A stretch of 64,000 nucleotides of DNA from an uncultured Anaerolinea sp. (GTDB lineage Bacteria > Chloroflexota > Anaerolineae > Anaerolineales > UBA4823): assembly GCA_964531975.1 (NCBI GenBank), contig CAZHFU010000001.1:139177-203176 (forward strand). Direction: 5' to 3'. The translations under genes were made by a program, and so were the position numbers. Shown piece after piece: positions 23,937-47,991 of the stretch. The notes under the pieces were generated by a model that was given only the letters and a program-made list of their open reading frames with translations, was not told the DNA's origin and made no database searches. Each line of letters starts with the position of its first letter. Position 1 is the stretch's first letter.

Positions 23937-24069
23937 CCCCGGCAGGGTGAGAGGCAGGTAATTAAGGCAGCAGCCCGGCTCCGCTTGCCATTCGAAGTGC
24001 GACCAGGCTTAAACCCGCGCTTAATCAAAACAATGATAACCCCTAACAGAGTTGGGGGAAAAGCCGGAA

Positions 24070-24075
24070 TATAAT
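24070..24075 (+). promoter_or_regulatory. Candidate -10 box (TATAAT) 6 nt upstream of the GTG at 24082
   Basis: TATAAT at 24070-24075 and GTG at 24082 directly precede a canonical signal peptide. No SD. Confidence 0.3.
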
Positions 24076-24081
24076 AGCAGC

Positions 24082-25515
24082 GTGCCTTTCCAAAAATTAA
24101 TCCACAAATTAACCCTGGCAGCCGTGCCGGCGGTTTTGCTAAGCATGGTGACGCTAAGCGCGATATTCCCGCACCCCGCACTGGCCGCCCCGTCGCGCAG
24201 CGTATCCGCCTACGACCTGATCGCGGCGATGAACGCCCTGCGAGCCTCCTATGGGCTGCCGGCGCTGATTGAGGACGCCATCATCGACGCCGTGGCGCAA
24301 TCCACCGCCCAAACCATGGCCAATAACAGCATGTCATCCCATATTGGTAACGTGGCAGGGCGCTTACAAGCGGCCGGCTATGGTGGGGGAGCGCACGTGT
24401 ACGGCACAGAAAATTTCGCCACCGGGAACATGGGCATCGATGAGATCATGTTGGTTTGGTCGGACGAAGCGCACATGATCCCGGCAGTCAATCCGGCCTA
24501 CTGCCATGTGGGGGCCGGGGTAGCCACTGCCAATGGACGCACCTACTACATCCTCCAAGCGGCTTACACCTCATCCAACGCTTGCGGCGCTTACGGCTCG
24601 GTGGCAGGCGGCGCAGCCGCCGGCTCAGCTGCTGGCAGCGGCGGAGTGGGCGTGCCGCAGCTCATCGTACCAGTAAAGGTGGCCGACCCCGACGGAAAAG
24701 GGCAAATCATCCACGAGGTGCAAGCCGGGCAGTCGCTATGGGCGATTGCTATCGCCTACAAAGTCACCATCCAAGATATTGAAACCTGGAACAACATCAG
24801 CCGCGAATATGGGCTAAAGGTGGGGCAGAAGCTTTTTATCCCTGGAGAAAACACCGCTGGCTATGCCACCCCCACCCCCGTGGGCATGGTGGTGGTGAAT
24901 GATGCCGGCGCCGACGGGAAGATTATCCACGCGGTTCAGCCTTATCAAACCCTGATTACCATCGCCCAGGCATACCACGTGAGCGTAGACACCCTGCTGG
25001 CCCAGAACGGCTGGCAGAAGGATTGGCCGCTGCAAATCGGGCAAAAACTCTTCATTGGCAGCAGCACAGGGATAAAAGGCTCGGCGCAGGGCGAGGCTGC
25101 GCTCTCGCCCATTCAGCAGCTTACACCGGCGGATGATGGGCGCTACTATCACCGCGTGAAGAGTGGAGAGACGCTTTCGAGTATTGCCGACCAATATCAA
25201 TCGAAGGTTCAGGATTTAATGGCCTGGAACGGACTAGACGGCGCTTCCATTTTATACCCAGATCAGAAGCTGGTTCTGCAAGTCACGCCGCCGGCCACGC
25301 CAACGCTTCCTCCCACCCCCACTCACACCGCAGCACCCCCGGCCCAGGCGGCCGGGCTGGCACAGGCCCTAACAAGCGTCACGCCGCCCGACAGCGCAGT
25401 TCCACAAGCCGCCGCCAAGGCGATGAACGGCGAGGCGATCTTTAAGATCGTGGTGCTGCTAATGATCGTGGGCGGGGCGGCGCTGACCGTTATGTCTATG
25501 CGCAAGCGAGCGTAA
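24082..25515 (+). CDS. Secreted CAP/SCP-domain protein with three LysM repeats and a C-terminal TM anchor
   Basis: The ORF is open from TTG 24052. GTG 24082 gives the signal peptide VPFQKLIHKLTLAAVPAVLL..ALA-AP. It has a CAP-like N-domain, three LysM repeats (IHEVQAGQSLWAIAIAY.., IHAVQPYQTLITIAQAY.., YHRVKSGETLSSIADQY..), a P/T/A-rich linker and a TM helix plus RKRA tail. Confidence 0.8.
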   Translation: MPFQKLIHKLTLAAVPAVLLSMVTLSAIFPHPALAAPSRSVSAYDLIAAMNALRASYGLPALIEDAIIDAVAQSTAQTMANNSMSSHIGNVAGRLQAAGYGGGAHVYGTENFATGNMGIDEIMLVWSDEAHMIPAVNPAYCHVGAGVATANGRTYYILQAAYTSSNACGAYGSVAGGAAAGSAAGSGGVGVPQLIVPVKVADPDGKGQIIHEVQAGQSLWAIAIAYKVTIQDIETWNNISREYGLKVGQKLFIPGENTAGYATPTPVGMVVVNDAGADGKIIHAVQPYQTLITIAQAYHVSVDTLLAQNGWQKDWPLQIGQKLFIGSSTGIKGSAQGEAALSPIQQLTPADDGRYYHRVKSGETLSSIADQYQSKVQDLMAWNGLDGASILYPDQKLVLQVTPPATPTLPPTPTHTAAPPAQAAGLAQALTSVTPPDSAVPQAAAKAMNGEAIFKIVVLLMIVGGAALTVMSMRKRA

Positions 25516-25595: not shown

Positions 25596-26762
25596 TTATT
25601 TCTTGTCGAGATATTTCAAACCCGTACCGGTATTGAACAGCACCACCGTCTCATCTGGTTCGATCCAACCCTCATGTAACAGACGCTGTGTCGCCGCCAG
25701 CGTGGCGGCCCCTTCCGGTGCGGCGAAAATACCTTCCTGAGCCGCCAGGAGCGCCTGGGCGTAGATGATCTCGCTGTCCGAAACAGCCACCGCAGTGCCA
25801 CAACTTTCACGAATATCGTGCAAGATGATCTGATCGGCGAAACTTTTTGGCACACGTAACCCCGAAGCGATGGTCTGCGCTCCCACCCAATAATCGCAGA
25901 ACAAGGCGTTATTATCAAAGGCCCGAATGACCGGCGCGCAGCCTTCGGCTTGCACCGCAACCATGCGCGGGCGGGCGGTTGTCTCTAGCCAGCCCATTTC
26001 AGCCATTTCTTTGAACGCTTTCCACATACCTACCAGACCAGTGCCGCCGCCGGTGGGATAGACAATAACGTCCGGCAGTTTCCAGTGGAAATCTTCCGCC
26101 AGCTCGTAGCCCATCACCTTCTTGCCTTCACAGCGATATGGCTCTTTGAACGTCGAGACATCAAACCAACCCTCCAGGCGCGCACGCTCGCCTGCCATAC
26201 CGGCGGCCTCGCTAATTAGCCCGTCGATCAAAATGACCTGCGCCCCGGCAATCCGGCTCTCTTCTATGTTGGCGTAGGGGGTATCTTTAGGCATGTAAAT
26301 GCACGCCTCCAAGCCCGAGCGAGCGGCATAGGCCGCCATCGCGCCGCCGGCATTGCCGGCTGTAGGGATAATGACCCGCTTTACACCCAGCTCTTTGCCC
26401 TTAGACACCGCCGCAGATAGCCCGCGGGCTTTAAACGAACCAGTAGGATTCAGACTTTCGTCTTTCACCATCAGGTTAGTCATGCCTAAAGATTCGCCCA
26501 CGCGCGGCAGCCGCAGCAGCGGGGTATCTCCCTCGCCCAGGCTAATCATATTTTCGGGATCATGTACAGGTAACAGCTCATGCCACCGCCACATACTGCG
26601 TGGACGGCGGATAAACTCATCACGGTCGAGATGGCTGCGCGCCGTTTGCAAATCGTACACGGCCATCAGAGGCGCCTGGCAATCGGTGCAGTAGGTCTGA
26701 ATCACACCCGGGTTGTATGACTGACCGCACGCTGAACATTTCAGATCGATTAAGTATGACAT
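25596..26762 (-). CDS. Threonine-synthase-family PLP enzyme with an N-terminal zinc ribbon
   Basis: 388 aa. N-terminal CSAC..x..CTDC ribbon, PLP-lysine block GSFKARG and fold-type-II PLP blocks (TAGNAGGA, GGGTGL). Confidence 0.85.
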   Translation of the reverse strand: MSYLIDLKCSACGQSYNPGVIQTYCTDCQAPLMAVYDLQTARSHLDRDEFIRRPRSMWRWHELLPVHDPENMISLGEGDTPLLRLPRVGESLGMTNLMVKDESLNPTGSFKARGLSAAVSKGKELGVKRVIIPTAGNAGGAMAAYAARSGLEACIYMPKDTPYANIEESRIAGAQVILIDGLISEAAGMAGERARLEGWFDVSTFKEPYRCEGKKVMGYELAEDFHWKLPDVIVYPTGGGTGLVGMWKAFKEMAEMGWLETTARPRMVAVQAEGCAPVIRAFDNNALFCDYWVGAQTIASGLRVPKSFADQIILHDIRESCGTAVAVSDSEIIYAQALLAAQEGIFAAPEGAATLAATQRLLHEGWIEPDETVVLFNTGTGLKYLDKK

Positions 26763-26765
26763 GGG

Positions 26766-27146
26766 CTAACCGGCTTCCGCCAGGAAACCTTCGACCCTGG
26801 CCCACAACTCCCGGATATTGATGGGCTTAGACATATACACATCGCACCCGGCAGCTAACGCCTTCTCTGCATCGCCACGCAGCGCGTTGGCCGTCACCGC
26901 AATGATTGGCACATATACCAAACGGCGCTTCCCGCTGTTGCGCAGCCGACGAGCCACTTCATAGCCGTCGATATCGGGCAGGTTAATGTCCAAAAGGATT
27001 ACATCTGGGGCCATAGATTCCGCAATTTCAACGCCGCTCAATCCATCTTGCGCCCAGAGGAATTCATAACCGCGCGCTTCTAAGGCGCGCTTTACGAGGG
27101 TCATGTTATCCGAATTATCTTCTACATATAATATTTTATACGGCAT
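26766..27146 (-). CDS. Single-domain response regulator (CheY-like receiver)
   Basis: Start chosen at ATG 27146 (GGAGGA SD 8 nt upstream). Receiver residues are present: VEDN, LLDINLPDIDG, AVTAN, MSKP. Confidence 0.85.
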   Translation of the reverse strand: MPYKILYVEDNSDNMTLVKRALEARGYEFLWAQDGLSGVEIAESMAPDVILLDINLPDIDGYEVARRLRNSGKRRLVYVPIIAVTANALRGDAEKALAAGCDVYMSKPINIRELWARVEGFLAEAG

Positions 27147-28830
27147 GCGAGGCATCCTCCGGTTTTCTCGCCGCGTCTTCGTCGTTGCTTTGCGCGGCTC
27201 TTTGCTCCAACACCTCCACCACCTGGTCAACAAACACCTTAGGCGGCAAGGAACCTTTTTGGTAGATCGCTTCGATATTACCTTTCAAACGGGCGCGGTC
27301 GATAGCCGTCAGATCCTTGGCGCTCACCACTATGACCGGGATATCGCGCGTGTGACTATCATTCTTCAACGCCTGTAAAAAACCAAATCCATCCAGGTTG
27401 GGCATCATTAAATCGGTAATAATCAAATCCGGCCGTCGTTCACGGGCCAGGTTTAGCCCCTCCACCCCATCCGCAGCCTGAAAAACGCGGTAATTCTTGC
27501 GCGCTTCCAAAAACCGGCGCACAAGCAGGGCGTCATCGGGGTTATCATCCATAATAAGCACAGTCGTCGTCTTTTCGTCCAACCGTTCGAGGGCGGCTTG
27601 CAAACCATCGGTGCGCGCGGGCAACTTCCCCTCGGCAAGATTTATATCCACGCTCCATTGATCGCCCAACACGTGCTTCTCAACCGGGAAGGTGTGTCCG
27701 GTGCAGTTAACCACCACCAGTTCTTCCGGCGAAATCACGCCCGCGCTAATCATCTTGCTCAGCCCGGCGAAGGCCACCGCCGTAGCAGGTTCTACAGCTA
27801 AGCCCTCAATTTTTGCCAGATGACGCATGGCTTTGAAAGCGTCCGAATCTGAGACGCTTTCCATTGTACCACCATGCTTCTGCGCCAGCTTCCACAAGTA
27901 GGTATATATTTTACCTGGGTCGCCGGTGGAGAGGATGGCAATTAGGGTTTGTGGGTTCACCGGCGTGGCTGCACTCTCGCCCCGATGAAAAGCTTCCACC
28001 ATCGGGGCGCAACCTTCCACCTGCACAACGCCCATTTTAGGAATATGGTCAATCAACCCCATTTCCAGCAGCTCTTCAAAGCCATGATACACCCCAAGTG
28101 GGCCTAAGCCGCCGCTCACCGATTGGATATACCAATCGGGGCTGCGCCAACCCAATTGCTCCACAATTTCGTAGGCGATAGTTTTCATGGCTTCGCGCGC
28201 CGCCAGGCTGCCCGCCCCACGATCAAGCCATAGGCCACGACGATGGGCAAATTCAGAGGCGATGATCTTCGTCTCATCATACGTCCCGCTAACTTTGATG
28301 ACCTCCGCCCCATACAGAGCCACTTCACGCAGCTTCTCTTGCGGAACCATGCTGGTCATAAAGACCCACAACTTAATCCCCGCCCGAGCGCAGGCCGCGG
28401 CATATGCGACTGCAGCATTGCCCGTGCTTGCGATGACGGTTTCACCAATGCCGGCTTCTACCATCGCCGCTACCGAAACCGCAGCCTGGCGATCTTTAAA
28501 CGAACTCGTGGGGCCAAAACGCTCATCTTTGACATACACGTTTTCATGGCCCAGCTCGCCCGCAAAGCGGCGCGAACGATACATAGGTGTGCCGCCCACC
28601 GTCTCTAGATCGAGGCTGTGCGGGTCTATAATCGGCAAAATATCATGATAGCGCCAAATGTTAAAGGCGCGCCCCGGCAAACCCCGCAGCACTTCGCGTT
28701 TAAAGCCGGCATAATCGTAATGAGCATCTACCCAAGACGATCCGCAGGCTTCGCAAATCACAGGTGTTTGCGGCTGATAGCTTTGTTCGCGCCCGCATTC
28801 AACACAACGCAGAAAAATTGGTAGTGTAAT
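27136..28830 (-). CDS. Threonine-synthase-like PLP enzyme fused to a C-terminal receiver (REC) domain
   Basis: PLP-lysine block SSFKDRQA (Lys codon at 28495-28497) and TGNAAVA. The REC domain is at nt 27139-27570 (IMDDNPDD, IITDLMMPNLDG, VVSAK). The first canonical start is GTG 28761. A start at ATT 28830 is proposed because half of the zinc ribbon lies upstream (see findings). Confidence 0.75.
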   Translation of the reverse strand: MTLPIFLRCVECGREQSYQPQTPVICEACGSSWVDAHYDYAGFKREVLRGLPGRAFNIWRYHDILPIIDPHSLDLETVGGTPMYRSRRFAGELGHENVYVKDERFGPTSSFKDRQAAVSVAAMVEAGIGETVIASTGNAAVAYAAACARAGIKLWVFMTSMVPQEKLREVALYGAEVIKVSGTYDETKIIASEFAHRRGLWLDRGAGSLAAREAMKTIAYEIVEQLGWRSPDWYIQSVSGGLGPLGVYHGFEELLEMGLIDHIPKMGVVQVEGCAPMVEAFHRGESAATPVNPQTLIAILSTGDPGKIYTYLWKLAQKHGGTMESVSDSDAFKAMRHLAKIEGLAVEPATAVAFAGLSKMISAGVISPEELVVVNCTGHTFPVEKHVLGDQWSVDINLAEGKLPARTDGLQAALERLDEKTTTVLIMDDNPDDALLVRRFLEARKNYRVFQAADGVEGLNLARERRPDLIITDLMMPNLDGFGFLQALKNDSHTRDIPVIVVSAKDLTAIDRARLKGNIEAIYQKGSLPPKVFVDQVVEVLEQRAAQSNDEDAARKPEDASHAV

Positions 28831-28845
28831 AAAAGCCTCCCAGAA

Positions 28846-31800
28846 TTAAACGTGGCTGTTCACCGGCAGCTCCAAAATGAGCGTGGAGCCGCAGCCGGCG
28901 CCTTCGCTTTCAGCCCACAGCCGACCGCCATGCAATTCCACTAATCGACGGCTGATAGGCAGGCCCAAGCCTGTGCCCCCGGCCTTGCGCGTGGTGGTGT
29001 TATCCACCTGGCTAAACGCCTCGAATATATCGTCCAGTTTCTCTTTAGGAATGCCAATCCCGGTATCACGGATGCGCACCTGAATACGATCTTCCAGCAC
29101 TTCCACACCGGTAACGCAGTGTTCCAATTCTATCGTGATTCCGCCCGTTTCGGTAAATTTGATGGCATTGCCCATCAGGTTAATTAGAATCTGGCGGATA
29201 CGTACATGGTCGGCGGCGACTACCCATTCACCGGCGGCATCGGCGTTCAGATGGACATACAAATTTTTATCTCTCGCCAAGGCCGCGCCGCTTTGAATAA
29301 CGTCATCGCACAAATCATACAGGTTAATCGGTTCGGGGCTAAGCGTCAGCCGGCCAGCTTCGATCTTTGCCATGTCTAACACATCATTGATGAGATTGAG
29401 CAGGTGCTTGCCGTTCTTCTCAATCAGGCCTAAATCTCCTTCCATCACATTGGTCAGCGGTCCATCCAGCCCTTCAACGATCACCTGGGTAAAGCCCAAA
29501 ATAGAGTTGAGCGGAGTGCGCAGCTCATGGCTCATGTTCGCCAGGAAGGCAGACTTCATGTTGTCCAATTCTCGCAGCCGCTCTACAGTGGCTAACTGCT
29601 CGGCATATAACTTGGCGTTTTGCAAGGCCACCGCCACTTGCGAGGCCAGCGTGGCGTAAGTACGAATGTCATCTTCCGTAAACCAGTTGACGACTTCGGA
29701 CTGGACATCGAAGACGCCCAACAGCACATTGCCAATCACCATCGGCACGGCCAGTTCCGAGCGTGTCATGGGTAAGAGTTCGTTTTCTAAGAACCCTTCC
29801 GCCTGGCGCACATCTCCAATCAGCTTGCCTTGACGGCTGCGGGCGGCTTGCGCCACAATACTATTGGGCTGGTCGGTGGGGATGGACCAACCTTCGGCCG
29901 TTTCCAACCGCCCCAATTCGCCAGCGCCTACGCTCAGGTTAAGAACAGTGGCGTCTTCGTTCATCAGATAAATGTGGGCGTGGTACAAACCAAAACGAAT
30001 TTGGGTGAGGTCTACCACCTGCTGCAGCAGTTCTTGTGGGTCGAGGATGGTAGCTGTGGCGGTCGAGACCTCCGCCACGGCCTGCAGCTCGACTGCGCTC
30101 TTCTGGGTTTGTTCCATCAGGCGGGCGCGCTCCAGGGCTTGCGCCACCTGTTCAGACACCGCCTGCAAGAAAGCTTCTTCCTCAGAGGTCATCCCCCGAG
30201 AACCATCGGGGCGCACCCCCAACACGCCAATCGTCTCGCCGCGCACCAACAAAGGCGCATCTACCGATGCCACCTGGGCCGACTGCCCGAACAACTCGGC
30301 GTAATCTTCCATGATGGGCGCAACCTGCACCCGGTTATACATGTAACCTTGCACACCGCCCAACTGTGTTTCGTAACTGGCCCATGCTTTGCGGCTCATC
30401 TGGCGCTCTAAGGAAGTAAGTTCCGCCACGCGTTCACGCAGGCTGCCTTGTAGACGTAAACCCTGAACCACAACCGCCGCCTGGCCGATTAGCGCAGTGA
30501 TGCGATTTAGCTCGCCTTCACTGATCCGTATCATATTGGCGGATTGGGCGGCAATTGCGCCGAACCACTCCCCTCCTGCCACCAACGGGAAGAATACAAA
30601 ACTACCCATGCTCAGGGTTTGATTAAATCTCGCGCCCACTTCCGCAGGGATGCGCGCATCGTTCAGCATATCTTGCACCACTAAGGGCGCATCCGGCCGC
30701 GCCGCCGACATCAAAGGAAATTGATTAAGTTGAGAGACCGAACCCGGCCGACTTAGCGGGGGTTTCCCCCCCGGCGTCCAAACCTCCGCGTTTAGCATAT
30801 AGGCCGGCGGTTTGCTCACCCAGGGTTGATCGAATAGCTCCAACGCCACCTGATCCATCTCCTGCAAACGACTGGCGTCTACCACCGCGATCAACACGTC
30901 TCGCAGCGAGTTTGAGCTGACCAGGCGCGCTGAGGCAGTGTATAAGGATTGCGTTTCGGAAAGCGCATCTTGGGTCTGCCTGAATAACCGGGCGCTTTCC
31001 AGAGCTTGTGATAGCTGATCGGAGACCAGGTGGATCATCTGCTTCTGTGCAAATGGAACCGGTTTACCATCTTCCGCTTCAAAGCGCAGCGTGCCAATCG
31101 GTTGGCCGCGCGCCTGCAGCGTTGTAACCACCGCATCTCCTACTCGCGTCGGTTTTGAAGGCCCGTGTTGATGCGATTTAACCCGAATTTCGCCCACTTC
31201 AACGGCAATGCGCCCTCGCATCATCTTGTTCAAATCTTTAACCACCACTTGCACAATCGCTTCTTCATCAAACGTGGCGCGCATGTTGGCGCTCATTTCG
31301 CGGAACGCCTGTTCCTGTGCAGCCCGCTCTTGCGCCAGGCTCAACAATCGGCGCGATTGCAGCGAGGCCGAAACCAGCGAGGCGACCTGTTGGAGCAGCG
31401 CCTGACGGCTTGGGTCAAACTGCGCCAGGCTGGCGCTAACTATATTCAGCACCCCGAAGGCGTCATTGCCCAGGAAAAGGGGCGCGCTCATTAAAGCGTG
31501 CATGCCCAATTTGCTCATCTGAACGCCTTCGACAACACTTTCCAGTTCGCCATCGCCCGGCCAGGTCATCAACCGGCGAGCATTAATCACCGCGCCGGCC
31601 GCGCTGCCCTTCGCTGGAACCGGATCGCCCACAGGAACAAGATTCTTGGCCGCCTCATCCAGCGCCAGCATGTCAAACTGCTGGTTTTTTACATCCAAAA
31701 CACCCAGCGAAGCCATCTCAAATTCAGCCACGCGGGCAGCAAAGCTCACCGCAATGGTCAGCAGCGCCTGCTCGCTGGCGGCCTGGCTCATTTCTGCCGC

Positions 31801-34800
31801 CACCTGGTTCAACGCCGCCAGGTTATCCGCCTGCTGTCGAGTTTGCGCCAGGATCTGCTCGCGCAGGGTCACATCGCGGGCAAAGACCAGCACCCCCCAC
31901 ACCTGCCCGGTTTCGTCTTGCAACGGCGCTCTCAGAACGTTGAAAACGCGCGGCTCATGATCTAATATCACGGGCGCATTGGGGTAGAGCCGCGCTTCCG
32001 CGCCCTCGAACAAGGCTTTGTCGTCGGCGGCGAAACCAGGAATGCCTTTTTCCGCGTCGCCGGTCATCATCGTCTCAGGCAGGCCCAGTTCCAGGTCGTC
32101 TTTGCCAAGGAAGGCCTCCGCCGGCAGGTGCAGCGCATCGGCGTAGCCGCTGTTGACAAGGCTGTAGCGGCCCTGTTGATCTTTAATGTAAATCCAGTCG
32201 GGTGTAGAATTGATGATCGTGCGCAGCAGCCCTTCCTGGGTGGCAAGGGTGGTAGCAGTTTCCCGTAAACGTTCCACTTGCTCAATCAACGCCAGGGCGC
32301 TAGAGGCCTGTCCGGCAATTGCCACCAACAGATCGCGCTCGCGCTCGGTATACATGCCGGGCCGAGAAGTGCTTTGCACCGAGATAACGCCCAAGACCCG
32401 GTCGCCAAAGATGAGCGGCACACCCAGCCATGAGAGCGCCGGTTTAGAATCGCCGAACACCACCGATTCAAGGCCGATGCTGCGCATTCCGGCGGTGACA
32501 TCGTCGCTAAAAAGCAGTGGCTTTTTGGTGCGGATAATGTAATCGGACATACTGGCGCGCAAGCTGCGCGTGGGAAGGTTGAGCGCGCTTTGTCCCCGGT
32601 ATGCAATGGGGAAGGAAACCTGCTGTGTCTCTTCGTTATAGAGCGCAATGAAGAAGCTCTCCGTTTCCATAAACTTTTGGGTGTTCTCATAAATCAGCCG
32701 AAGCGCCTTGTCTACATCTAGCGACGAGGAAATATCAAGGGCCATCTGATTTAATATTTCCACATTGCGCGATTCGGTCTGTATTGTTTGCAACAATTTA
32801 ACCCGCTCGGTCACATCCCGCACATAACCATAAACACCGATAATCTCACCGTTAGGATCACGCAACGGCAGCTTATAAGTATCCAAGAAATGCGTTTCGC
32901 CGTCTATTTCGTGCTCTTCACCATAGAGATACTGCGGTTCGCCGGTCTCCAACACGTGCTGGTCCACCTTCCACGAGCCTTCGATGCCCTTAGTTGGATT
33001 ACCGATCCTTAAACCTTCCGGGAAGCCTAATTGCAAGTCGTTTTTGCCCAGTAAAGCGTCAAGCGGCATACCCATAAACTTCGCAAACGCGTCATTTGCC
33101 AGGGTAAGAACATGATCCCGGTTCTTGACAAAGATCCAGTCGGGGGTCACATCAATGATCGTCCGAATAAAGACCTCAGACTGGCGCATCTCTTCATATT
33201 GACGGGCGTTCTGCAGCGTCACCGCCGCTTGGGCTGCCAAAGTCGTCATGATGTCCACATCTTCTTGCGAGAAATAGGCCAACTGGTCCGACTGAACATC
33301 CATTACGCCGATCAGATGATCGCCCGCTACCAGCGGCGCGGCCAACTCGGAACGTGTTTCCGGCAGCAATTCGTTGGGCAAGAACCCGGCTTCAGCGCGC
33401 ACATCGCTTACCACCTGACCCTGGCGTGTACGGGCTGCCCGCGCCACAATCGAAGTTTCCTTATCCAGGTCAATTTCCCAGCCGGTGGCTGTCATCGCGC
33501 GCCCCACATCTCCGGCCCCGGCCATCAACTTCAGGCGAAGGCCATCGTCCGATAGCAAGTAAATTTGGGCATGGTAAAGGTTTAGCTGCTCTTTGGTTAA
33601 ATCCACCGCGGCTTGCATCAGGTCTTGCACACCCATTGAATTGGCAATCGTGGTGCTAATGCGCGCCACAGCGGCCAACTGAACCGCCTGGCGCGTCATC
33701 GATTCGTACTGCTTAGAATAGGCCACCGCACGCGCGGTTTGTTGTGCAATCGAATACAGCACTTCCAGCTCGGCTTGACCATAGATATTAGCCGCTTTGA
33801 CGCTTTGCAGAGAAATGACCCCCAACACCCGATTGTTATAGGAAATCGGTACACCCACCCAAGAAAGGGGAACTTCGTCATCGCCCAGTGGGACGAAATC
33901 GATTCCCAGCTCTTTCATATGATCGACAACATTCTCACCAAATACCAGTTGGCGACCTGTGCGCAATATGTATTCAGTTAGCCCATTCAACGGAGAGCGA
34001 GTAGGCAAGAAGAACGGGGCGCCATCCACATACACCACGGGATAAGCAATCATATCGGATACTTCGTCGTACATTGCCACGAAGAAATTCTCCGTATCCA
34101 TCAAGCGCCCGGTGAAATGGTATACATGCTCGAGGATCTTGGTTAGATCTAACTCTGAAGAAATAGCGCGTCCCAGCTCATTAAGCGTCGCCAGTTCATG
34201 CAAGTGCCGCTCGGAACGCTCCCCAGCTTTGATCGTATCAATATACCCGCACACGCGAGAGATAATACTGCCCAGCAGCGCGCTTTCCGCATCCACAAAA
34301 TCGCGTGGCTCAGTATAAGCCACGTGGAGCCAACCAACCAGGTTATGCCCCACCCGCAGCCCGCCCACCACCTTCGCAGTTTGTTGCAGCGTGCGCGGAT
34401 CGCCATATATGGCGCCTTCGTATTCAATCGCCGAAATACATACTTCTGAATACTGAAAACCGGAGGGAATGCGTTTGCAAATCCAGCTTAAGAACTCGGG
34501 CAAGGGCGGCTTTTCGTCAATCTGATGGCCGATATCATTGAGGCAGTTGAGTTCACGCACCCGTTTCTCTAGCATATACGCCGTGCGATGCTGATGAGAA
34601 ATATCCTGCGCGATGGTTACAAAACGCAGCGGTTTCTGGTCTGCGTCCATCAGCAGAATAACATTGAGTTCCACCCACACCGCACGACCATCTTTATGTA
34701 CGTAGCGCTTCTCAATGCGGGCCGTCTGGGTCTTCCCTTCCACCATGGCCTTTAACGCTTCCGCGCCGACAGTTTTATCATCCGGATAAGTTAAATCTTG

Positions 34801-35076
34801 AAAATTTTTGCCAACCAACTCATCCTGTGTATACCCCAATAAGCGGGCGAATGCAGCGTTGATATGTAGTAAACGTCCATCTATCCCGGTCAATACCATC
34901 CCAAGCGCGATGGACTCGAAGACGGTCTTGTAGAGGGACTCTGCATCTTGGGAGGTATATGATCGAACCGCCGCGCCTATCGGGTCAAGCAAAGGCGCTG
35001 GCGATTCGCCCTCTTGCTTGGGCGCACCAGAAAAGATTTCATCAAGACGGTTTTTCAGATCGTCATTTTTTGGCAT
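28846..35076 (-). CDS. Giant soluble sensor histidine kinase (PAS, multiple GAF, PAS, GAF, PAS, GAF, half-GAF modules, GAF, HisKA, HATPase_c)
   Basis: 2076 aa with no TM segment seen. H-box MSHELRTPLN, N-box LINLMGNAIKFT, G-boxes DTGIGI and GGTGLGL. There are many GAF and PAS repeats. GGGAG SD upstream of ATG 35076. Confidence 0.9.
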   Translation of the reverse strand: MPKNDDLKNRLDEIFSGAPKQEGESPAPLLDPIGAAVRSYTSQDAESLYKTVFESIALGMVLTGIDGRLLHINAAFARLLGYTQDELVGKNFQDLTYPDDKTVGAEALKAMVEGKTQTARIEKRYVHKDGRAVWVELNVILLMDADQKPLRFVTIAQDISHQHRTAYMLEKRVRELNCLNDIGHQIDEKPPLPEFLSWICKRIPSGFQYSEVCISAIEYEGAIYGDPRTLQQTAKVVGGLRVGHNLVGWLHVAYTEPRDFVDAESALLGSIISRVCGYIDTIKAGERSERHLHELATLNELGRAISSELDLTKILEHVYHFTGRLMDTENFFVAMYDEVSDMIAYPVVYVDGAPFFLPTRSPLNGLTEYILRTGRQLVFGENVVDHMKELGIDFVPLGDDEVPLSWVGVPISYNNRVLGVISLQSVKAANIYGQAELEVLYSIAQQTARAVAYSKQYESMTRQAVQLAAVARISTTIANSMGVQDLMQAAVDLTKEQLNLYHAQIYLLSDDGLRLKLMAGAGDVGRAMTATGWEIDLDKETSIVARAARTRQGQVVSDVRAEAGFLPNELLPETRSELAAPLVAGDHLIGVMDVQSDQLAYFSQEDVDIMTTLAAQAAVTLQNARQYEEMRQSEVFIRTIIDVTPDWIFVKNRDHVLTLANDAFAKFMGMPLDALLGKNDLQLGFPEGLRIGNPTKGIEGSWKVDQHVLETGEPQYLYGEEHEIDGETHFLDTYKLPLRDPNGEIIGVYGYVRDVTERVKLLQTIQTESRNVEILNQMALDISSSLDVDKALRLIYENTQKFMETESFFIALYNEETQQVSFPIAYRGQSALNLPTRSLRASMSDYIIRTKKPLLFSDDVTAGMRSIGLESVVFGDSKPALSWLGVPLIFGDRVLGVISVQSTSRPGMYTERERDLLVAIAGQASSALALIEQVERLRETATTLATQEGLLRTIINSTPDWIYIKDQQGRYSLVNSGYADALHLPAEAFLGKDDLELGLPETMMTGDAEKGIPGFAADDKALFEGAEARLYPNAPVILDHEPRVFNVLRAPLQDETGQVWGVLVFARDVTLREQILAQTRQQADNLAALNQVAAEMSQAASEQALLTIAVSFAARVAEFEMASLGVLDVKNQQFDMLALDEAAKNLVPVGDPVPAKGSAAGAVINARRLMTWPGDGELESVVEGVQMSKLGMHALMSAPLFLGNDAFGVLNIVSASLAQFDPSRQALLQQVASLVSASLQSRRLLSLAQERAAQEQAFREMSANMRATFDEEAIVQVVVKDLNKMMRGRIAVEVGEIRVKSHQHGPSKPTRVGDAVVTTLQARGQPIGTLRFEAEDGKPVPFAQKQMIHLVSDQLSQALESARLFRQTQDALSETQSLYTASARLVSSNSLRDVLIAVVDASRLQEMDQVALELFDQPWVSKPPAYMLNAEVWTPGGKPPLSRPGSVSQLNQFPLMSAARPDAPLVVQDMLNDARIPAEVGARFNQTLSMGSFVFFPLVAGGEWFGAIAAQSANMIRISEGELNRITALIGQAAVVVQGLRLQGSLRERVAELTSLERQMSRKAWASYETQLGGVQGYMYNRVQVAPIMEDYAELFGQSAQVASVDAPLLVRGETIGVLGVRPDGSRGMTSEEEAFLQAVSEQVAQALERARLMEQTQKSAVELQAVAEVSTATATILDPQELLQQVVDLTQIRFGLYHAHIYLMNEDATVLNLSVGAGELGRLETAEGWSIPTDQPNSIVAQAARSRQGKLIGDVRQAEGFLENELLPMTRSELAVPMVIGNVLLGVFDVQSEVVNWFTEDDIRTYATLASQVAVALQNAKLYAEQLATVERLRELDNMKSAFLANMSHELRTPLNSILGFTQVIVEGLDGPLTNVMEGDLGLIEKNGKHLLNLINDVLDMAKIEAGRLTLSPEPINLYDLCDDVIQSGAALARDKNLYVHLNADAAGEWVVAADHVRIRQILINLMGNAIKFTETGGITIELEHCVTGVEVLEDRIQVRIRDTGIGIPKEKLDDIFEAFSQVDNTTTRKAGGTGLGLPISRRLVELHGGRLWAESEGAGCGSTLILELPVNSHV

Positions 35077-35885
35077 AGCATCAGCTCCCGCGCCAGGGCG
35101 CGATATTCGTTCGCGCTTCGGCTTTTGGCGGCGTACAGGTTAATGGGCTTGGCAAACAAAGCGCTCTCTCGCAAACGGGCGTCGAGGGGTATTTGCGTTT
35201 CGAACAGGCAGCCGCTAAATTTCTGTCGATATTGGTCGGCAAACAGGCGGCTCAATCTTGTGCGGCCATCGAACATCGTAATCACCAAACGATGTTCGAT
35301 AGACGGGTTGATATTTTTGCGCAAAATTCCTAACAGGCGCAAATAAGTGTTCAGCGACTGCATTGAAAAATAATCGCAGCCCACCGGAATCAGCGCCAGC
35401 GAACAAGCCGCCAGAGCGTTAATTGTTAGTGGAGCAAAACTAGGCGGACAATCGCACAACACCACATCATAATAAGCAAATTCGCCCACCGCTGCGCCAG
35501 GGGCTTCTAAGGCGCGTTTTAGGCGATATTCATACGCGCTGGCGGTATGGAGCATCTTCTCCACCAGGATGAGACCGCGGTTGGCGGGGGCCACTTCCAG
35601 GTTGTTGATGGGCGTTTCTCGGCTTACATCGGTTAGAGCAGCTTGCATCAACAAAGCGTCGCCAATTGACAGGCGTAAGGTTTCCGGGTTAATGCCTAAA
35701 GCCTGGGTGAGATGCGCCTGGGGGTCAAGATCGATCAGCAGAACCTTGAAACCAAGCTCAGCCAGCGCCGCGCCTAATGAAAGGCAGGTGGTGGTTTTGC
35801 CAACCCCACCCTTTTGACTGCTGACGGCAATCCAGGGCCTGATCCCAGCCGAAGGGGCCGGGTTTATTTCTACCGGCAGGTTCAT
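35055..35885 (-). CDS. Orphan ParA/Soj-family ATPase
   Basis: 276 aa. Deviant Walker A SSQKGGVGKTTT, LLIDLDPQ, Walker B-like VVLCDCPP. No parB nearby. Confidence 0.85.
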   Translation of the reverse strand: MNLPVEINPAPSAGIRPWIAVSSQKGGVGKTTTCLSLGAALAELGFKVLLIDLDPQAHLTQALGINPETLRLSIGDALLMQAALTDVSRETPINNLEVAPANRGLILVEKMLHTASAYEYRLKRALEAPGAAVGEFAYYDVVLCDCPPSFAPLTINALAACSLALIPVGCDYFSMQSLNTYLRLLGILRKNINPSIEHRLVITMFDGRTRLSRLFADQYRQKFSGCLFETQIPLDARLRESALFAKPINLYAAKSRSANEYRALARELMLCQKMTI

Positions 35886-38800
35886 TCGGATTCCCTGTCC
35901 TTCTGGCTGCCCAAGTAAATATATGCGGGCAGACCCATCGCTTTGCCCACCTCTTCTACAGCACGGCGCATAATCGTATTGACATCCGGAGCGTTCACCA
36001 CCTCCGCCGTCACCTGGCGAATGCGCTGTTCGCGCTGCGCTCTGGATTGGGCTTGCTCAAGCAGCAAGCGGCTTTGAACAGCAATCGCCGCCTGGCCTGC
36101 CACAGCTGAAAGGCGGGTTTGTTCGTCCACAGGGAAGTCTACCGGCTTATCGTAAAAACCCTGGATGAACCCAATCATTTGTTTGCCCAACATCAATGGA
36201 AAAACCACCGAGCTGCACCCCATAAACACATCCTGGAACAAAGTGCGGGTCAACCGATCCAGACGTGCATCATTGGCAATGTCCGACATGATGACTGGTT
36301 GTTCGGTAAACAACCCCCCTGGGCGGGCTTCAAAAGCGCTCAGCGGGTAACGTTCGGCCACGTTGAGACCGGGCGCCGCCCGGAAGGCCACCGGGAAAAT
36401 CCATTCGGGGCGATGCTCGGCAGTCAATGGGCGATCAAAAACCGCCATCATCAGCAGCGGCGATGCGCTCCCCAACAAGGTGCGCTCGGCAAGGGTGTGT
36501 AAAATATCCTGGTAACCGCCGGCGGCGTTCATCTCCGCGATCATGCTGTAAAGCGTCTCAGTATCGGCCAGGGCCGCTTGAGTCTGGCTGAATAAGCGAG
36601 CGCTTTCTAACGCCAGCGCCACCTGATCCGACATACCTTGCAGCAAATCCAACTCATCCGGAGATAATGGGTGCTGCCTATCAGCCTGCACCGCCAACGC
36701 GCCAATCACATCCCCACGCAGGGTCAACGGCACGGCCGCCACACCCTGGCCGGGCAGGTTTACAAAGGCGTTGGCTTGCATGGCTTGCCGGCTTTCCTCC
36801 AGCCAACGCCCGTCATCTGGCGCTACCTCGAGCCGGTCATAATAATAGCCGGTTTGCGCTCCCTGGCGCTGGCGCAGCGCCTGCCATCCCTGGCGGCTCA
36901 CGGTGCGATACAAATTATCGATTTCGGCCAGGCGTTCTGCTGTCTCTTGCTGCAAACGCTCGCGGTCGCTAATATCGCGAACAAAGCTCAGTACGCCGGT
37001 CGCCTTACCATCCTCCCCCACCAAAGGAAGCTTTAGCGTGGAAAGGAAGCGCATTTCGCCGCCCACCATAGAGGCCTTCGAATCCATCGATTTTATTGTC
37101 AGAGTACGGGCCACTTCATCGTCTTCTTGCCAGGCGCCCACCAGGCCTTGCTCGGCATCGCCTTTGACCGCCCTTTCATCAAAGCCAAGTTCTAATTCAT
37201 CCTTGTCGATTAAATCCTCTTTATTCAACCCCAAACTTTCGGCAAAACTACGGTTAACCAGTTGGAAGCGGTGGTTCAAATCCTTGATATATATCCAATC
37301 GGGGCTGGCATCAATGATGGTGCGCACCAGTGCTTCGGACTGTTGGGTCTGCTGATACTGCCTGGCGTTCTGATATGCCACGGCAATTTGCGCGGCCAGG
37401 GTGGTCTGGATCGCCACATCCGCTGGGGTGAAACGCCCCGCAGTATCCGATTGAATATCTAACGCGCCCAAGATGGTATCGCCCGCAATGAGCGGTACGA
37501 CCATTTCCGCGGCGGTTTTTTGCAGCAGTTCGTTAGCCATATAATAAGGGTCTTGATCGATCCGATTAGAAATCACGCCCTGACGCAGCCGGATAGCCCG
37601 TGCAGCCAGTGATCTCTCGCTATCGGTATTAATCCGCCAGCCCTGGCTAGATAGGCGCTCACCCACCTGGCCCGCTCCTGCCTTCAATTCCAAAATTCCA
37701 CGGTCGGCATCGAGCAAGTATACCTGCACATAGTAAAAGCCAAACGAGGTTTGAATGCGGTTTACTGCTCGCTGCAGCAAACTGGCCGGGTTGGAGATGG
37801 CATTGATCTCGGCGCTGATTTGGGCTACCTTCGCCAATTCATCCACTTGCTGGGCCAAGGCTTGCTCCGTTTTCTTGGCGCTTTCCATATCAGTAATCAC
37901 ATCGGCAATATAGAGAGGATGCTCCTGAGCGTCTTTAATCAAAAACATGTTTTCAAGGGTTGGGCGAATGCTTCCATCCGGCCTTTGCAGGGCCATTTCC
38001 CCCACCCATTGCCCATCCCGGTATATCGTCGATATAATATCATCGAGCTGCTGACGAAATTGCGGTGGATAATAGGCGCTCGCTTGCGTTTGCTGTTCAG
38101 GATCGAGCGATTCTTTTCCTAACAGGCGAAGCAGAGCGGGGTTGGCGTAGAATAATTCTCCGTCCAAATGCGCCAGGCTCATGCCCTGTCCGGAGCTATC
38201 GGCGAAGCGGCGGAAAACGGATACATCTTGTAATGCTGCTTGTGTATCGGCGTACTGTCGGGCGTTTTCGAAGGCGACGCCAAGCTGGTTAGCCAACGCG
38301 CTCAGCAGGTCCACATCGGTCTGGCTAAGCCCATTAGCCATATCCGACTGAACATCCAACACTCCCACCACGCGCTCGCCCACCATTACCGGCACCGCCG
38401 CCTCGCTGCGTGTTTCAGGCAGAAGCGGATTGGGCAGCCAGCCTCTTTCAGAGCGGGCATCCGCCGCCAAGATGGGTTTTCCGCTATCTGCGGCGCGCCC
38501 CACCAGGCCGCGCCCGCGGGGCACTTTATGCTCAGATTGCAACAGGCTTTGACCCGCCTTGCCCGTGGCCGCCTTAAGCTCCAGGGTCTCCTTGGGGTCA
38601 TCCCACAAGTAAACCTGGGTATGGTAATAACCATACGCCTGCTGCACATCCTCCACCACCGCCGTCGCCAAGTCAATCGGGTTCAAGATGGTGGTCAAGC
38701 GCCGGCTAATTTCTGCGTTGGTTTGTAGGGCGCGGGTGCGCTCTGCCACCCGAACCTCCAAGGACTGGCGCATCTCTTCGAGCTGCTTATTTATCGCCCG

Positions 38801-39436
38801 GCCTTCAGCCAGGCGAGCGCGCTCCACGCGCGCCCGTAGACCCACCCCCACCGCCAGCACCACACCAATAGTCATACTGGTTCCAGCAGCAGTATAGGTT
38901 TCAACTGCGGGCAGCTGCGGGTTTAGGGATGGCAGGGTCAACAAAACGATAGAATTAATTACTACCGCAAGAGAAATAGCCTCCGCCGGCGCAAAAACGC
39001 CGGCAAAAACATAGCCTAAGACGATATATGTGTAAACTACTACCGCCACGCCTGCGTCCGGAATAGGGTTAGACAATAATAGGTTAAAAGTCAGCAAAGA
39101 AAGAGCCGCCATGGAAAGGTAAGCGCCCCACCTGAAATATCTTGTCCGAGAAAGACCGTACAATACCGCTAAGAGGAGAGCCAATAAGACTAATCGTACC
39201 AGGCTGCCCAAAGACCCAAATCCACGGTTTATGATCCCCGAAGCTAACATCCCCACCAAGTCGGCCATCAGCAAGGTCACACTTAAAACGGATAAAGCAA
39301 CGGCCTGGTTGCGCTCCCCTACCTCTACAATATCGGGATGGGGGCGCGTTAATCGGCTAAAGATGGTTTGTATACGCTTGAATACGCCGACGGTTCCGCG
39401 AGATTGAGGATCCATTTCCGGGGTCTTAGGCTGCAT
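35882..39436 (-). CDS. Multi-TM sensor protein (TM bundle, GAF, PAS, GAF, PAS, half-GAF, GAF, truncated-GAF cap) with no output domain seen
   Basis: Start chosen at ATG 39436 (AAGGAG SD 6 nt upstream). The track start GTG 39451 would overlap the upstream gene. The N-terminus has about 6 hydrophobic helices. GAF motif YYHTQVYLWD..NPLLPETRSEAAVP. Confidence 0.85.
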   Translation of the reverse strand: MQPKTPEMDPQSRGTVGVFKRIQTIFSRLTRPHPDIVEVGERNQAVALSVLSVTLLMADLVGMLASGIINRGFGSLGSLVRLVLLALLLAVLYGLSRTRYFRWGAYLSMAALSLLTFNLLLSNPIPDAGVAVVVYTYIVLGYVFAGVFAPAEAISLAVVINSIVLLTLPSLNPQLPAVETYTAAGTSMTIGVVLAVGVGLRARVERARLAEGRAINKQLEEMRQSLEVRVAERTRALQTNAEISRRLTTILNPIDLATAVVEDVQQAYGYYHTQVYLWDDPKETLELKAATGKAGQSLLQSEHKVPRGRGLVGRAADSGKPILAADARSERGWLPNPLLPETRSEAAVPVMVGERVVGVLDVQSDMANGLSQTDVDLLSALANQLGVAFENARQYADTQAALQDVSVFRRFADSSGQGMSLAHLDGELFYANPALLRLLGKESLDPEQQTQASAYYPPQFRQQLDDIISTIYRDGQWVGEMALQRPDGSIRPTLENMFLIKDAQEHPLYIADVITDMESAKKTEQALAQQVDELAKVAQISAEINAISNPASLLQRAVNRIQTSFGFYYVQVYLLDADRGILELKAGAGQVGERLSSQGWRINTDSERSLAARAIRLRQGVISNRIDQDPYYMANELLQKTAAEMVVPLIAGDTILGALDIQSDTAGRFTPADVAIQTTLAAQIAVAYQNARQYQQTQQSEALVRTIIDASPDWIYIKDLNHRFQLVNRSFAESLGLNKEDLIDKDELELGFDERAVKGDAEQGLVGAWQEDDEVARTLTIKSMDSKASMVGGEMRFLSTLKLPLVGEDGKATGVLSFVRDISDRERLQQETAERLAEIDNLYRTVSRQGWQALRQRQGAQTGYYYDRLEVAPDDGRWLEESRQAMQANAFVNLPGQGVAAVPLTLRGDVIGALAVQADRQHPLSPDELDLLQGMSDQVALALESARLFSQTQAALADTETLYSMIAEMNAAGGYQDILHTLAERTLLGSASPLLMMAVFDRPLTAEHRPEWIFPVAFRAAPGLNVAERYPLSAFEARPGGLFTEQPVIMSDIANDARLDRLTRTLFQDVFMGCSSVVFPLMLGKQMIGFIQGFYDKPVDFPVDEQTRLSAVAGQAAIAVQSRLLLEQAQSRAQREQRIRQVTAEVVNAPDVNTIMRRAVEEVGKAMGLPAYIYLGSQKDRESE

Positions 39437-39437
39437 G

Positions 39438-42400
39438 TTATGCTCCTTCACTCACGACATCCGCGGCAGGATGGCTTGAACCATTGTCATCAGGCCGGGG
39501 CTGTAAATCTTCTTCCGAATCTTCGCTTCTCATGCGAACCACCACATTCCGTCCTAAGGCCATTCCCACTTCGCGCGCGGCCAGGCGCAGCACCTGTTCG
39601 GGGTCGGCGGCGCTGCGCACTCGCTCGGCGACCTGGCGCAGCACTTGCTCGTGACGCGCCCGGCGGCGGCTTTCTTCCAGCAAGCTCAAGCCCTGGATGA
39701 CTGCCGCCCCCTGACCAATCAGCGATTCTGCCTGGCGTATCTGGGCCTCGTTTAGCTTACGGGGTTCGGAAGAGCCAAAGGTCATTAAACCAATCCACTG
39801 ATCCGCCACCACTAACGGGAAAGCCACGAGAGAGCGCCCCAGGTTGGCTAACTGGCCGCGCATTGCCGGGTCTAGCCCTTCAAAAACCATGATGTCTTCA
39901 ATAATATGCGGAGCGTCCCGATTAAACAAATTCAAAATAGGCATCGCCCGGATGGGAAGACTTATACCCAACGGAGGCAAGGACGGGTTTTCCGCGTCTT
40001 GCTTGCCGGCAATCACGGTTACAAAATCAGGAGGTTGCTCAGCCCATGGGGCGCTGAACAACATAATCGCGCCCCGTTCAAACTGGCGCAGCGCCGTCGC
40101 TTTCATAACAGCATCCAAGACGCCGTTGGGGGTGTTGGCGCGGACTACATCTTCAGAGCTAGCATATAGGGCATCGGTGACTGCCAAAGCCGAGCGGGTT
40201 TGCTCCGCCAGCCGCAGCGTTTCGATATGTTCGCTCAAACGCTCGGCCACAGCAGCTAACAACGCCCGCTGATCGGAATCCAGATCGTCTCCACCTTCCA
40301 AGCCAATCTCGCCAATCGTTTCGCCGCGCACACTGAGCGGCTGCACGAAAGGAAGGGCTGTCGCAACTTCCTGGGCAGTCACCTGCGTTTGATCGTAGAC
40401 AAAGGCCGGCGTTTCGGGCTGCTCACGCATATAACTCTGCCAACCTTCGCGGATTAAGCGGCGGGCCGCATCTTCAGCCTCCTGGCGATAGCGCTCTGCT
40501 TGCTCCAACAAGCGCAGATTATCGATTTGCCTGGCAACCTGGGCGGTGATATTCTTTACCCACTCCACTTCATCGGGCTGCCAGGGCGCACCCTTACGGA
40601 TCACTTCCAACTCGCCCACCGCTTCTCCTGTAACGATAATGGGCACATTGAGTATCTGCCCGGGGGCGGCTACATCCAAGGGCCTGGAAGCATCCAGGGG
40701 CTGAACGGCGTTATCTTGGAAAATATAACCCTGCGTTTCAGGTCGATTAATGGCATCCAAAAAAGTGTCATAGCTCGCCGCGGTTCGGCGGCGGGCCTGG
40801 CGTTCAACATCTGCGCGGGCTTGCTGAACCTGCGTGAACAAGGCAGCATTCTCCACGGCCACAGCCAACTGCGCCGCCAATGTTTGGAATGCGGGGAGAA
40901 TTTCTCGATTAAATGCTTGTGGGGTCTGACTCTGCAAATCCAACACGCCCACCACGCGGTCGCCCATCATCAACGGAACCGCAGCTTCGGAACGCGTGTC
41001 TGGCAGCAAGACATTCGCCTTAAAATCCGGCGCGCTTAACGTGTCTTCAACCACTCTGGACTGTTTCGAAACGACTGCCGCGCCGTTCAAAGAATCTAGC
41101 CCCACCGGCAAACGATGGCCGCGGCGCAGCAGCTCGCCACCCGTCTCGCCCGATCCCGCCCGCAAAACGAGCGATTTAGAGCGTTCATCCATCAGGTAAA
41201 TTTGCACATAATACAAATCAAAACTCGATTGGATCATCTCCACGGCGGTCTTCAACAGTTCATCCAGGTCGCGCTGTTCCACCAACGAGCGCCCCACATC
41301 GCCCGCCAGCGTCAATTCACGTGTCCGGGCAGCAACGCGCTGCTCCAGGTCTGTCACGTTCCGGCGCAGCTGCTCAGTCATATCGTTAAAGGCTAACCCC
41401 AAGCGACCCACCTCGTCGCGGGAAGCTACATCAGCGCGGGCCGATAAATTCCCGGCGCGCACCTGCTCGGCCGTCTCTGTTAGCCGCTTAATAGGCCGAG
41501 AAATTGCCTGCGCCAGAATTACCGACAAGAAAGACACCACGCCCGATACCACGCCAATCAGGCCAATTTGGCTTTCGGCTTGCGCGGCCACCGGCGCTAA
41601 CGCCTCCTCCGATCGCTGACGCAGAACCAGGAACCAGCCCAGGCGAACAATCTCTGGGTCGTTCCGCAGCGTTGTTACCGGAGAGCGCGCAATAATTGAC
41701 GAGTAACCACCATATTCGGCCTGCGTAAAAGAGGTAGATGGCAGATCGGCTAATACCTGCATCGCCTCAGGATTTGGAAGACTAAACTGACCGTCTATGA
41801 TAGCCCGCGGCGCATCATTCGAGAAATATAGATCGGCATAGGTTTGTTGACCTGGTAAATCGCCGGAAATAACATCGATAATGCCTTGCAAATCGTAGGT
41901 GCTGCGTATCACCCCAAGCACCTCTTGCCCATCATTATCAAACACCGGTACGGCGATAACCATAACGTTCTTGCCCACGCTTGTATCATACGCGGGCTGG
42001 CTGAAATAAATCGACCCTCGGCCTTCCTGATAGGCGTTCCGCCACCAATCTTCGTCCGCCTGGTAATAATCGGTGGTAATGTGGCTGGCGGCAATCAGCG
42101 CCCCATGTTTATCGGTTAATATGGTTTCGGTGTTATAAGGGAAAATATTATCGTACTCTTGGAGATCCAAAGAGATTTGGTTTTGCAAGAACGACGCCAG
42201 CAGCGGGTTATCATCCTCTTGGTTTTGCGCAGCTTGCCGCCATAAAATGTCTGTCTGCTGAATTTGATATGCCACCCCTAGCTTATCCGCATCGTAAGCG
42301 CTGTTCGAGGCGATCAGCGCCTTTTGAATGGATTCACTGATATAAAAGGTTTTTAGCGCGTCCACCTGGGCAGATAGCAGATCGGCCACGGCCTGGGCAC

Positions 42401-47903: not shown

Positions 47904-47991
47904 CGCGAATCCTCAGTTTGCACTTTTAGCCAAACCCACCCATTTATTTTCTATCACCAACAACAGCTTGCCTGTAAAGCAGCCATTAATT

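Follow-up and report, generated by a model that had tools for sequence, protein, structure and literature searches.

The outputs of known response regulators are almost all DNA binding, cyclic di-GMP turnover, or chemotaxis. What, then, does a receiver domain do when it is attached to a threonine synthase-like enzyme? The question is raised by a gene in a 64,000-nucleotide (nt) stretch of DNA from an uncultured Anaerolinea sp. (contig CAZHFU010000001.1, positions 139,177 to 203,176; here, the window), which encodes a ThrC-like, pyridoxal phosphate (PLP)-dependent enzyme and a receiver as a single polypeptide. We found that this fusion is a real, conserved gene of the Anaerolineales that lies between a histidine kinase and a lone receiver. 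From sequence comparison and structure prediction, we favor the view that it is an enzymatic response regulator, i.e., a protein whose ThrC-family activity would be set by phosphorylation. The gene and its parts are as follows.

27136..28830, minus strand: ThrC-like PLP enzyme fused to a receiver (564 amino acids [aa]; ATT start codon; stop codon, 27136-27138)
28836..28841, minus strand: Shine-Dalgarno sequence GGGAGG, as read from the sequence, 5 nt upstream of the ATT start codon
28744..28806, minus strand: N-terminal zinc ribbon, CxxC-13-CxxC (Cys9, Cys12, Cys26, and Cys29), with the four cysteines invariant across relatives
27697..28602, minus strand: fold-type-II PLP catalytic domain (residues 77-378; Pfam PALP, 1.9e-70; best Protein Data Bank [PDB] sequence match, Aquifex ThrC 2zsj)
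27571..27693, minus strand: inter-domain linker (residues 380-420), with the motifs HTFPVEKHVLGDQW and EGLQAALExLDEK conserved in the alignment; predicted local distance difference test (pLDDT) score below 50
27196..27570, minus strand: receiver domain (residues 421-545), assigned from its Response_reg match (5.4e-19), invariant residues, and predicted (beta-alpha)5 fold

The fusion gene and its domains

The reading frame of the fusion is open from the stop codon of the kinase gene (TAA, 28846-28848) down to its own stop codon and encodes, in order, a zinc ribbon with four cysteines, a complete PLP domain of the ThrC type, a flexible linker of ~40 residues, and a full receiver. Pfam searches recovered both PALP and Response_reg at the scores listed above, and chance is excluded as a source of these two matches. 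The best 120 matches among 5.8 billion protein clusters all combine PF00291 with PF00072, are 67 to 100% identical to the window protein, and are 516 to 589 aa long. A scan of one genome per GTDB species recovered at least 550 relatives, of which the best 80 are full-length fusions with 64 to 81% identity. An assembly or frameshift artifact joining two separate genes, which the original prediction had named as a way in which it could fail, is thus a negligible prospect, as the same continuous frame recurs in those 120 independent cluster matches and 80 species genomes with its junction and linker sequence conserved.

The few organism names attached to the 120 clusters are those of Chloroflexota, Chloroflexi, or Anaerolineales metagenome-assembled genomes, and the functional names do not go beyond "threonine synthase," "pyridoxal-phosphate dependent enzyme," and "hypothetical protein." Nearly all of the 80 fusion genomes are labeled Chloroflexota, mostly Anaerolineales (including Candidatus Villigracilis and Brevefilum); two are labeled Thermoflexales, and one 1.6-kb contig was binned as Pseudomonadota. 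When 1.84 billion representatives clustered at 50% identity were searched exhaustively, only about six full-length fusion clusters were recovered; hence, the family is abundant but phylogenetically compact. Two of these clusters (P0122 and P0123; L165:7001-9127 and L166:448-2574), at ~50% identity, consist of a PALP domain followed by two receivers.

Every coordinate that had been given for the fusion frame holds, including its upstream end at 28830, which is the ATT codon. The homolog P0012 begins with MTLPLYLQC exactly where the window reads ITLPIFLRC, and at this position the 80 related loci have ATG in 73 cases and GTG in 2; in the nearest relative (L002; 81% identical), the codon that corresponds to the ATT of the window is ATC, preceded by AGGAGG (L002:5679). 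The first canonical start codon, GTG at 28761, was rejected: it would remove the first CxxC, half of the invariant zinc ribbon, and the homologs begin 23 codons earlier. Very probably, therefore, the sub-lineage of the window initiates this gene at AUU or AUC, and an ATT start placed right after the kinase stop codon may reflect deliberately weak or regulated translation initiation. The four cysteines of the ribbon are invariant in the fused proteins, in their unfused relatives, and in the unfused ThrC paralog encoded nearby, in agreement with the earlier observation that both ThrC-like genes of the window share this N-terminal element.

The PLP domain displays the motif SFKDRQAA with Lys112 (codon 28495-28497), the Asn loop ASTGNAA, and the PLP-phosphate loop SGGLGP, and its PLP residues Lys112, Asn138, and Gly240/241/243 are invariant in an alignment of 40 homologs. 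Its best PDB sequence match, Aquifex ThrC 2zsj, was recovered at 1.6e-41, and the top Foldseek matches of the fusion model are all threonine synthases, with target-normalized TM scores of ~0.8. It is very probably, judging from these comparisons, an active PLP enzyme of the ThrC family. In the receiver, the phospho-acceptor Asp473 (codon 27412-27414), the acidic pair Asp428/Asp429, Ser503, and Lys525 are likewise invariant in the 40 homologs, and the Asp residues and the Lys are invariant too in relatives at 50% identity. The Pfam receiver match scores 68.8 bits (gathering score, 30.2), and the best PDB matches of the receiver are PleD and DivK. AlphaFold2 run on the 40-homolog alignment (mean pLDDT, 75.5; predicted TM score, 0.65) yielded a ThrC-like core and a complete receiver (residues 422-553) of five strands alternating with five helices, with a pLDDT of ~77 to 89 in the receiver block up to residue 540. 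The original prediction of a complete PLP core and a full receiver with all of its phospho-chemistry residues is thus borne out down to the two codons cited for the catalytic Lys and the acceptor Asp, and the full (beta-alpha)5 fold of the C-terminal domain is recovered by structure prediction.

The kinase-fusion-receiver cassette

The fusion gene belongs to a set of four tightly packed minus-strand genes, namely, kinase, fusion, lone receiver, and paralog. The other three are as follows.

28846..35076, minus strand: cytoplasmic sensor histidine kinase (2,076 aa; Pfam: multiple PAS and GAF domains, HisKA, and HATPase_c; no receiver of its own)
26766..27146, minus strand: lone single-domain receiver (126 aa; Response_reg, 1e-25), the start of which overlaps the end of the fusion gene
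25596..26762, minus strand: unfused zinc-ribbon ThrC paralog (388 aa; PALP, 1.5e-75; NF006050, 562.8 bits), starting 4 nt after the end of the receiver gene

The lone CheY-like receiver and the second, unfused ThrC-like gene originally noted directly downstream of the fusion are both supported by these matches. We compared the order of the genes in 80 genome loci by tblastn with the window proteins as queries, counting in each case the loci that could be assessed. The catalytic core of the kinase ends right before the fusion gene in 73 of 74 loci, and the kinase is presumed to be the cognate partner of the fusion. The lone receiver lies directly downstream of the fusion in all 76 loci and is tandemly duplicated in five of them (L004, L009, L012, L015, and L067), between the fusion and the lone receiver; its overlap with the fusion gene suggests translational coupling. 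The paralog follows the lone receiver in 42 of 67 loci; in the other 25, no paralog was found within 10 kb on either side, and unrelated genes lie downstream. The kinase-fusion-receiver order persists at ~50% identity, where some relatives have a second fused receiver and the genes run kinase, fusion, receiver, receiver, and then GNAT acetyltransferase. In the relatives at this distance (P0122, P0123, and L167), we observed two further lone receivers and then a conserved acetyltransferase of ~290 aa.

Of 13 assessable close orthologues of the paralog, 12 are preceded by the lone receiver, and some cassettes keep the receiver-then-paralog pair without any fusion (L082:7607-9173, L092:5600-7158, and L096:3761-5112). 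Together, these observations suggest a partnership in trans between the receiver and the ThrC-family enzyme. Upstream of the fusion-less pair lie a kinase directly (L082), a kinase and an HflX-type GTPase gene (L092), or a gene without a Pfam match (L096). Every variant of the cassette that we examined contains a ThrC-family gene, be it the fusion, an unfused gene behind the lone receiver, or the two together; hence, this gene can be linked to a receiver in cis, in trans, or in both ways. A Pfam scan of the cassette detected no DNA-binding regulator.

We propose that the PAS/GAF histidine kinase directly upstream would phosphorylate Asp473 of the C-terminal receiver, which, carried on a flexible but sequence-conserved linker, would alter the activity of the N-terminal PLP domain. 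The latter would perform a beta/gamma-elimination or replacement on a hydroxy- or phospho-amino acid. Control would most likely operate through the release of an inhibitory contact, as in CheB, or through a changed dimer state, as in PleD, while the co-transcribed lone receiver could compete for phosphoryl groups or carry the signal in trans to the unfused paralog. The output of such a two-component module would be metabolic and not transcriptional. The original suggestion that phosphorylation gates the enzyme fits the near-constant position of the kinase and the invariant phospho-acceptor and PLP sites; the gating itself, with its phosphotransfer step, its direction and mechanism, and the reaction controlled, is what we infer from them.

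The reaction of the fused domain

Like bacterial ThrC (TIGR00260; PDB codes 2zsj, 1uim, 6cgq, and 2d1f), the fusion has a fold-type-II PLP domain with the SFKDR lysine, an S-T-G-N loop, and a TGH motif; it differs in its added zinc ribbon and receiver, in having Gln and not Gly after KDR, and in having an SGGLG instead of a GNAGN loop. The best NCBIfam model for both ThrC-like genes of the window is NF006050 (PRK08197), with the members of which the fusion shares the zinc ribbon and the catalytic architecture. The paralog belongs to this family, with a score well above the cut-off of 303, whereas the fused domain, at 240.6 bits, is below it, lacks P-Y-R-x-E-G, and is only 33% identical to the paralog. 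With the TIGR00260 thrC model, the fused domain is only just above the cut-off (172.7 versus 167.1), and it falls under the cut-offs of the remaining ThrC equivalog models. The paralog matches Aquifex ThrC at 8.6e-53. In a quick neighbor-joining tree, which has no bootstrap and is indicative only, the fused proteins and the unfused P0127 form one group, apart from the crystallized ThrCs, within a subfamily characterized by SFKDRQ and by a VSGGxG loop, and the paralog clade lies in the other half alongside the crystallized ThrCs. Given the low identity of the two ThrC genes and their placement in different halves of this unbootstrapped tree, a recent tandem duplication was rejected.

Substrate-site residues were compared in Thermus thermophilus numbering by means of a HMMER alignment. 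Canonical ThrCs display K61, S84-T-G-N-T88, N154-S155, N-P-[YH]-R160-x-E-G, and G-N188-A-G-N. The paralog retains the canonical P-Y-R-x-E-G as P-Y-R-C-E-G, whereas the fused clade has S-T-G-N-A, R-G, P-[AS]-R-E with the Arg one position late, and an S-G-G-L-G loop, which amounts to T88A, N154R, S155G, R160A (Arg at +1), and N188G; in more distant fusions, the late Arg is Lys or Val. We take T88, N154, S155, R160, and N188 of the T. thermophilus enzyme to be the positions that bind the phosphate of O-phosphohomoserine, roles that Omi et al. in 2003 are said to have described. By this comparison, the fused domain appears to belong to a divergent ThrC-like subclade with an altered substrate-phosphate site, and, with the canonical motif kept in the paralog, its substrate need not be that of ThrC. 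The original prediction had urged this caution and proposed a phylogeny and a comparison of pocket residues; both set the fused clade apart from the paralog and the crystallized enzymes, within the limits of the unbootstrapped tree and of the presumed site assignments.

Two non-threonine members of the wider family offer points of comparison. Cysteate synthase (TIGR03844; CapA2, PDB code 9k3c) is a ThrC homolog that acts on O-phospho-amino acids and is often annotated as threonine synthase; the fused domain scores higher with its model than the paralog does (130.1 versus 70 bits) and is far below the cut-off of 324.9, and 9k3c matches the fused domain at only 2.4e-17, versus the far stronger match to ThrC. 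MetM, a MetO-thiocarboxylate-dependent homocysteine synthase, is another ThrC homolog with O-phospho-amino acid substrates that is often annotated as threonine synthase; no MetO-like sulfur-carrier gene was found in the window cassette or in the gene tables of five related fusion-cassette loci.

A sub-case of the enzymatic response regulator is that both genes encode true O-phosphohomoserine threonine synthases and that the fusion is an isozyme through which a kinase signal would match threonine supply to growth. We regard this as a minority option, although some of the data speak for it: the TIGR00260 model is cleared, if barely; the best sequence and structure matches are crystallized threonine synthases; P0127, the closest unfused relative, passes NF006050 and lies among housekeeping-type genes; and plant threonine synthase, which is likewise allosteric via an appended domain, is among the Foldseek matches (PDB code 2c2b). 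Set against these are the substitutions listed above at four of the presumed phosphate-site positions, the displacement by one of the Arg160 equivalent, and the shortfall in the NF006050 score. Further, neither hom nor thrB was found in the window cassette or in 10 paralog-family metagenome loci with mapped flanking open reading frames, six of which were Pfam scanned. The flanks in these six contain a racemase, LysR regulators, a binding protein, a methyltransferase, an HflX GTPase, or kinases, and a threonine-operon context for the paralog family was looked for and not found, with no hom or thrB among the flanking genes examined. The contexts of the closest unfused relatives of the fusion (P0127, P0133, P0138, and P0151) are uninformative. 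ThrC homologs are often mis-annotated, with MetM as an example (bioRxiv 10.1101/2024.10.14.618325). Taken by itself, the fused domain more probably catalyzes another ThrC-family reaction, with genuine threonine synthesis as a substantial competing possibility.

Proposed phosphorylation control and its alternatives

The enzymatic response regulators CheB, PleD, RpfG, and PorX likewise combine a phosphorylatable receiver with a catalytic domain beside a histidine kinase, and control of the fusion is presumably post-translational, as in these proteins. In contrast to them, the fusion has a PLP amino acid enzyme as its output, a C-terminal receiver, and a lone receiver that is always co-encoded. 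Otherwise, the regulators of fold-type-II PLP enzymes are small molecules, such as S-adenosylmethionine in plant threonine synthase and in CBS and Ile/Val in IlvA. The core is allosterically controlled in these enzymes as proposed here, and the regulatory domain of CBS and the ACT-like domain of IlvA are also C-terminal; the effector of the fusion, however, would be phosphorylation by a kinase and not a bound metabolite. ThrC-like cores gain regulatory modules elsewhere too, as our search for relatives recovered combinations of PALP with the LeuA allosteric domain. These are zinc-ribbon ThrC-like enzymes of ~615 aa with a C-terminal LeuA allosteric/dimerization domain (PF08502; P0210 and P0219 and, by length, P0220 and P0256), apparently another uncharacterized regulated ThrC architecture.

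Galperin has reportedly catalogued receiver fusions to standard metabolic enzymes. Such fusions are a recognized, mostly unstudied class with narrow phyletic ranges, interpreted in terms of environmental control of activity (PMC5847659). The receiver-metabolic enzyme class is thus already recognized, and its ThrC-family member is uncharacterized. Literature searches on ThrC-receiver fusions, PLP output domains, and cysteate synthase structures gave nothing relevant beyond the general statement in PMC5847659 and the MetM study; we found no account of a PLP enzyme, whether of the ThrC family or not, under the control of a receiver. As to whether the fusion is a common and already characterized family, it is common within the Anaerolineales, and the databases call it only "threonine synthase."

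Several observations weigh against control of the enzyme by phosphorylation. The receiver is C-terminal to the enzyme, the opposite of most response regulators. Its Pfam match spans only positions 1 to 82 of the 111 in the profile, for which reason the alpha4-beta5-alpha5 face is divergent. AlphaFold2 predicted no fixed contact between the domains, so that any mechanism of coupling is a guess. One fusion cluster, P0128 (42% identical; L168:329-2017), has a degenerate receiver without the acidic pair and the lysine, and phosphorylation is thus not required in every lineage. The sub-threshold NF006050 score and the changed phosphate-site positions described above belong on the same side. As a separate observation, the P0128 gene adjoins an ornithine carbamoyltransferase gene.

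Some of these points recur in a rather unlikely alternative in which the PLP domain is a sensor and not an enzyme, i.e., a ligand-binding input comparable to the aminotransferase-like domain of GabR/MocR. An aldimine formed with an amino acid signal would shift the rate of receiver phosphorylation or dephosphorylation and thereby tune the flow of phosphate to the lone receiver. This would suit the C-terminal position of the receiver, as in hybrid kinases and CheV, where receivers follow another module, as well as the status of the lone receiver as the most constant partner in the loci compared. The drift of the phosphate site in the fused clade, with Arg, Lys, or Val after the canonical Arg position, as if turnover were unselected, and the existence of the P0128 pseudo-receiver point the same way. 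Nevertheless, all PLP-binding and general catalytic positions are invariant, the sole encoded candidate effector for the lone receiver is another ThrC-family enzyme, and no fold-type-II PLP domain is known to serve purely as a sensor.

A phosphate sink, in which the fused receiver would drain phosphoryl groups from the kinase and set the threshold of the lone receiver while the enzyme stays constitutive and unaffected, is quite improbable: two or three receivers do compete for one kinase and no inter-domain contact is predicted, but a sink needs no attached enzyme, relatives as distant as ~50% identity retain the fusion together with its linker motifs, and the enzyme is kept in lineages that add another receiver.

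Returning to the enzymatic response regulator, we also entertain, tentatively, a wider proposal: a two-component family, widespread in the Anaerolineales, without transcriptional output that may control two ThrC-family PLP enzymes, one in cis through the fused receiver and one in trans through the single-domain receiver, with the fused enzyme making a non-threonine product, e.g., a non-proteinogenic or signaling amino acid. If this is true, the cassette would be a direct kinase-to-PLP enzyme metabolic switch. Even the narrower proposal, if it holds, would provide a clear example of a sensor kinase that controls metabolism post-translationally, with a receiver directly switching a PLP amino acid enzyme, and would add a new mode of allostery among fold-type-II PLP enzymes. 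Many Anaerolineales, a group that is abundant yet poorly studied in sludge, sediment, and groundwater, share the conserved module, and the uniform mislabeling of the fusion as "threonine synthase" may distort metabolic reconstructions. The cis-fused and trans-paired forms amount to a natural experiment on the evolution of receiver-enzyme coupling.

The remaining features of the surroundings are listed below. An Rfam scan of the whole window (1-64000) gave no family reaching its gathering score.

35055-50781, minus strand: overlapping signaling genes upstream of the kinase, encoding a REC-REC-GAF kinase, a MASE11-GAF protein, an NMT1-like binding protein, two dCache-HAMP-GAF proteins, a 1,189-aa GAF/PAS protein, and a ParA-like AAA_31 ATPase
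50885-53044, minus strand: conventional two-component pair, separate and further upstream, of a GAF histidine kinase and an OmpR-type response regulator
24052-25515, plus strand: 487-aa protein, encoded convergently to the ThrC paralog, that combines a CAP (cysteine-rich secretory protein family) domain with three LysM domains and a hydrophobic C-terminal segment

In 35055-50781, a Pfam scan detected no output domain in the sensor proteins after the first kinase. The ParA-like ATPase was considered as a core member of the cassette and rejected, as it is present in the window, L082, and L083 but was found within 10 kb in only 4 of 61 GTDB loci. The genes flanking the cassette are those for the CAP/LysM protein and ABC transporters, and sensor sets similar to that of the window lie upstream of the cassette in L001, L082, and L083.

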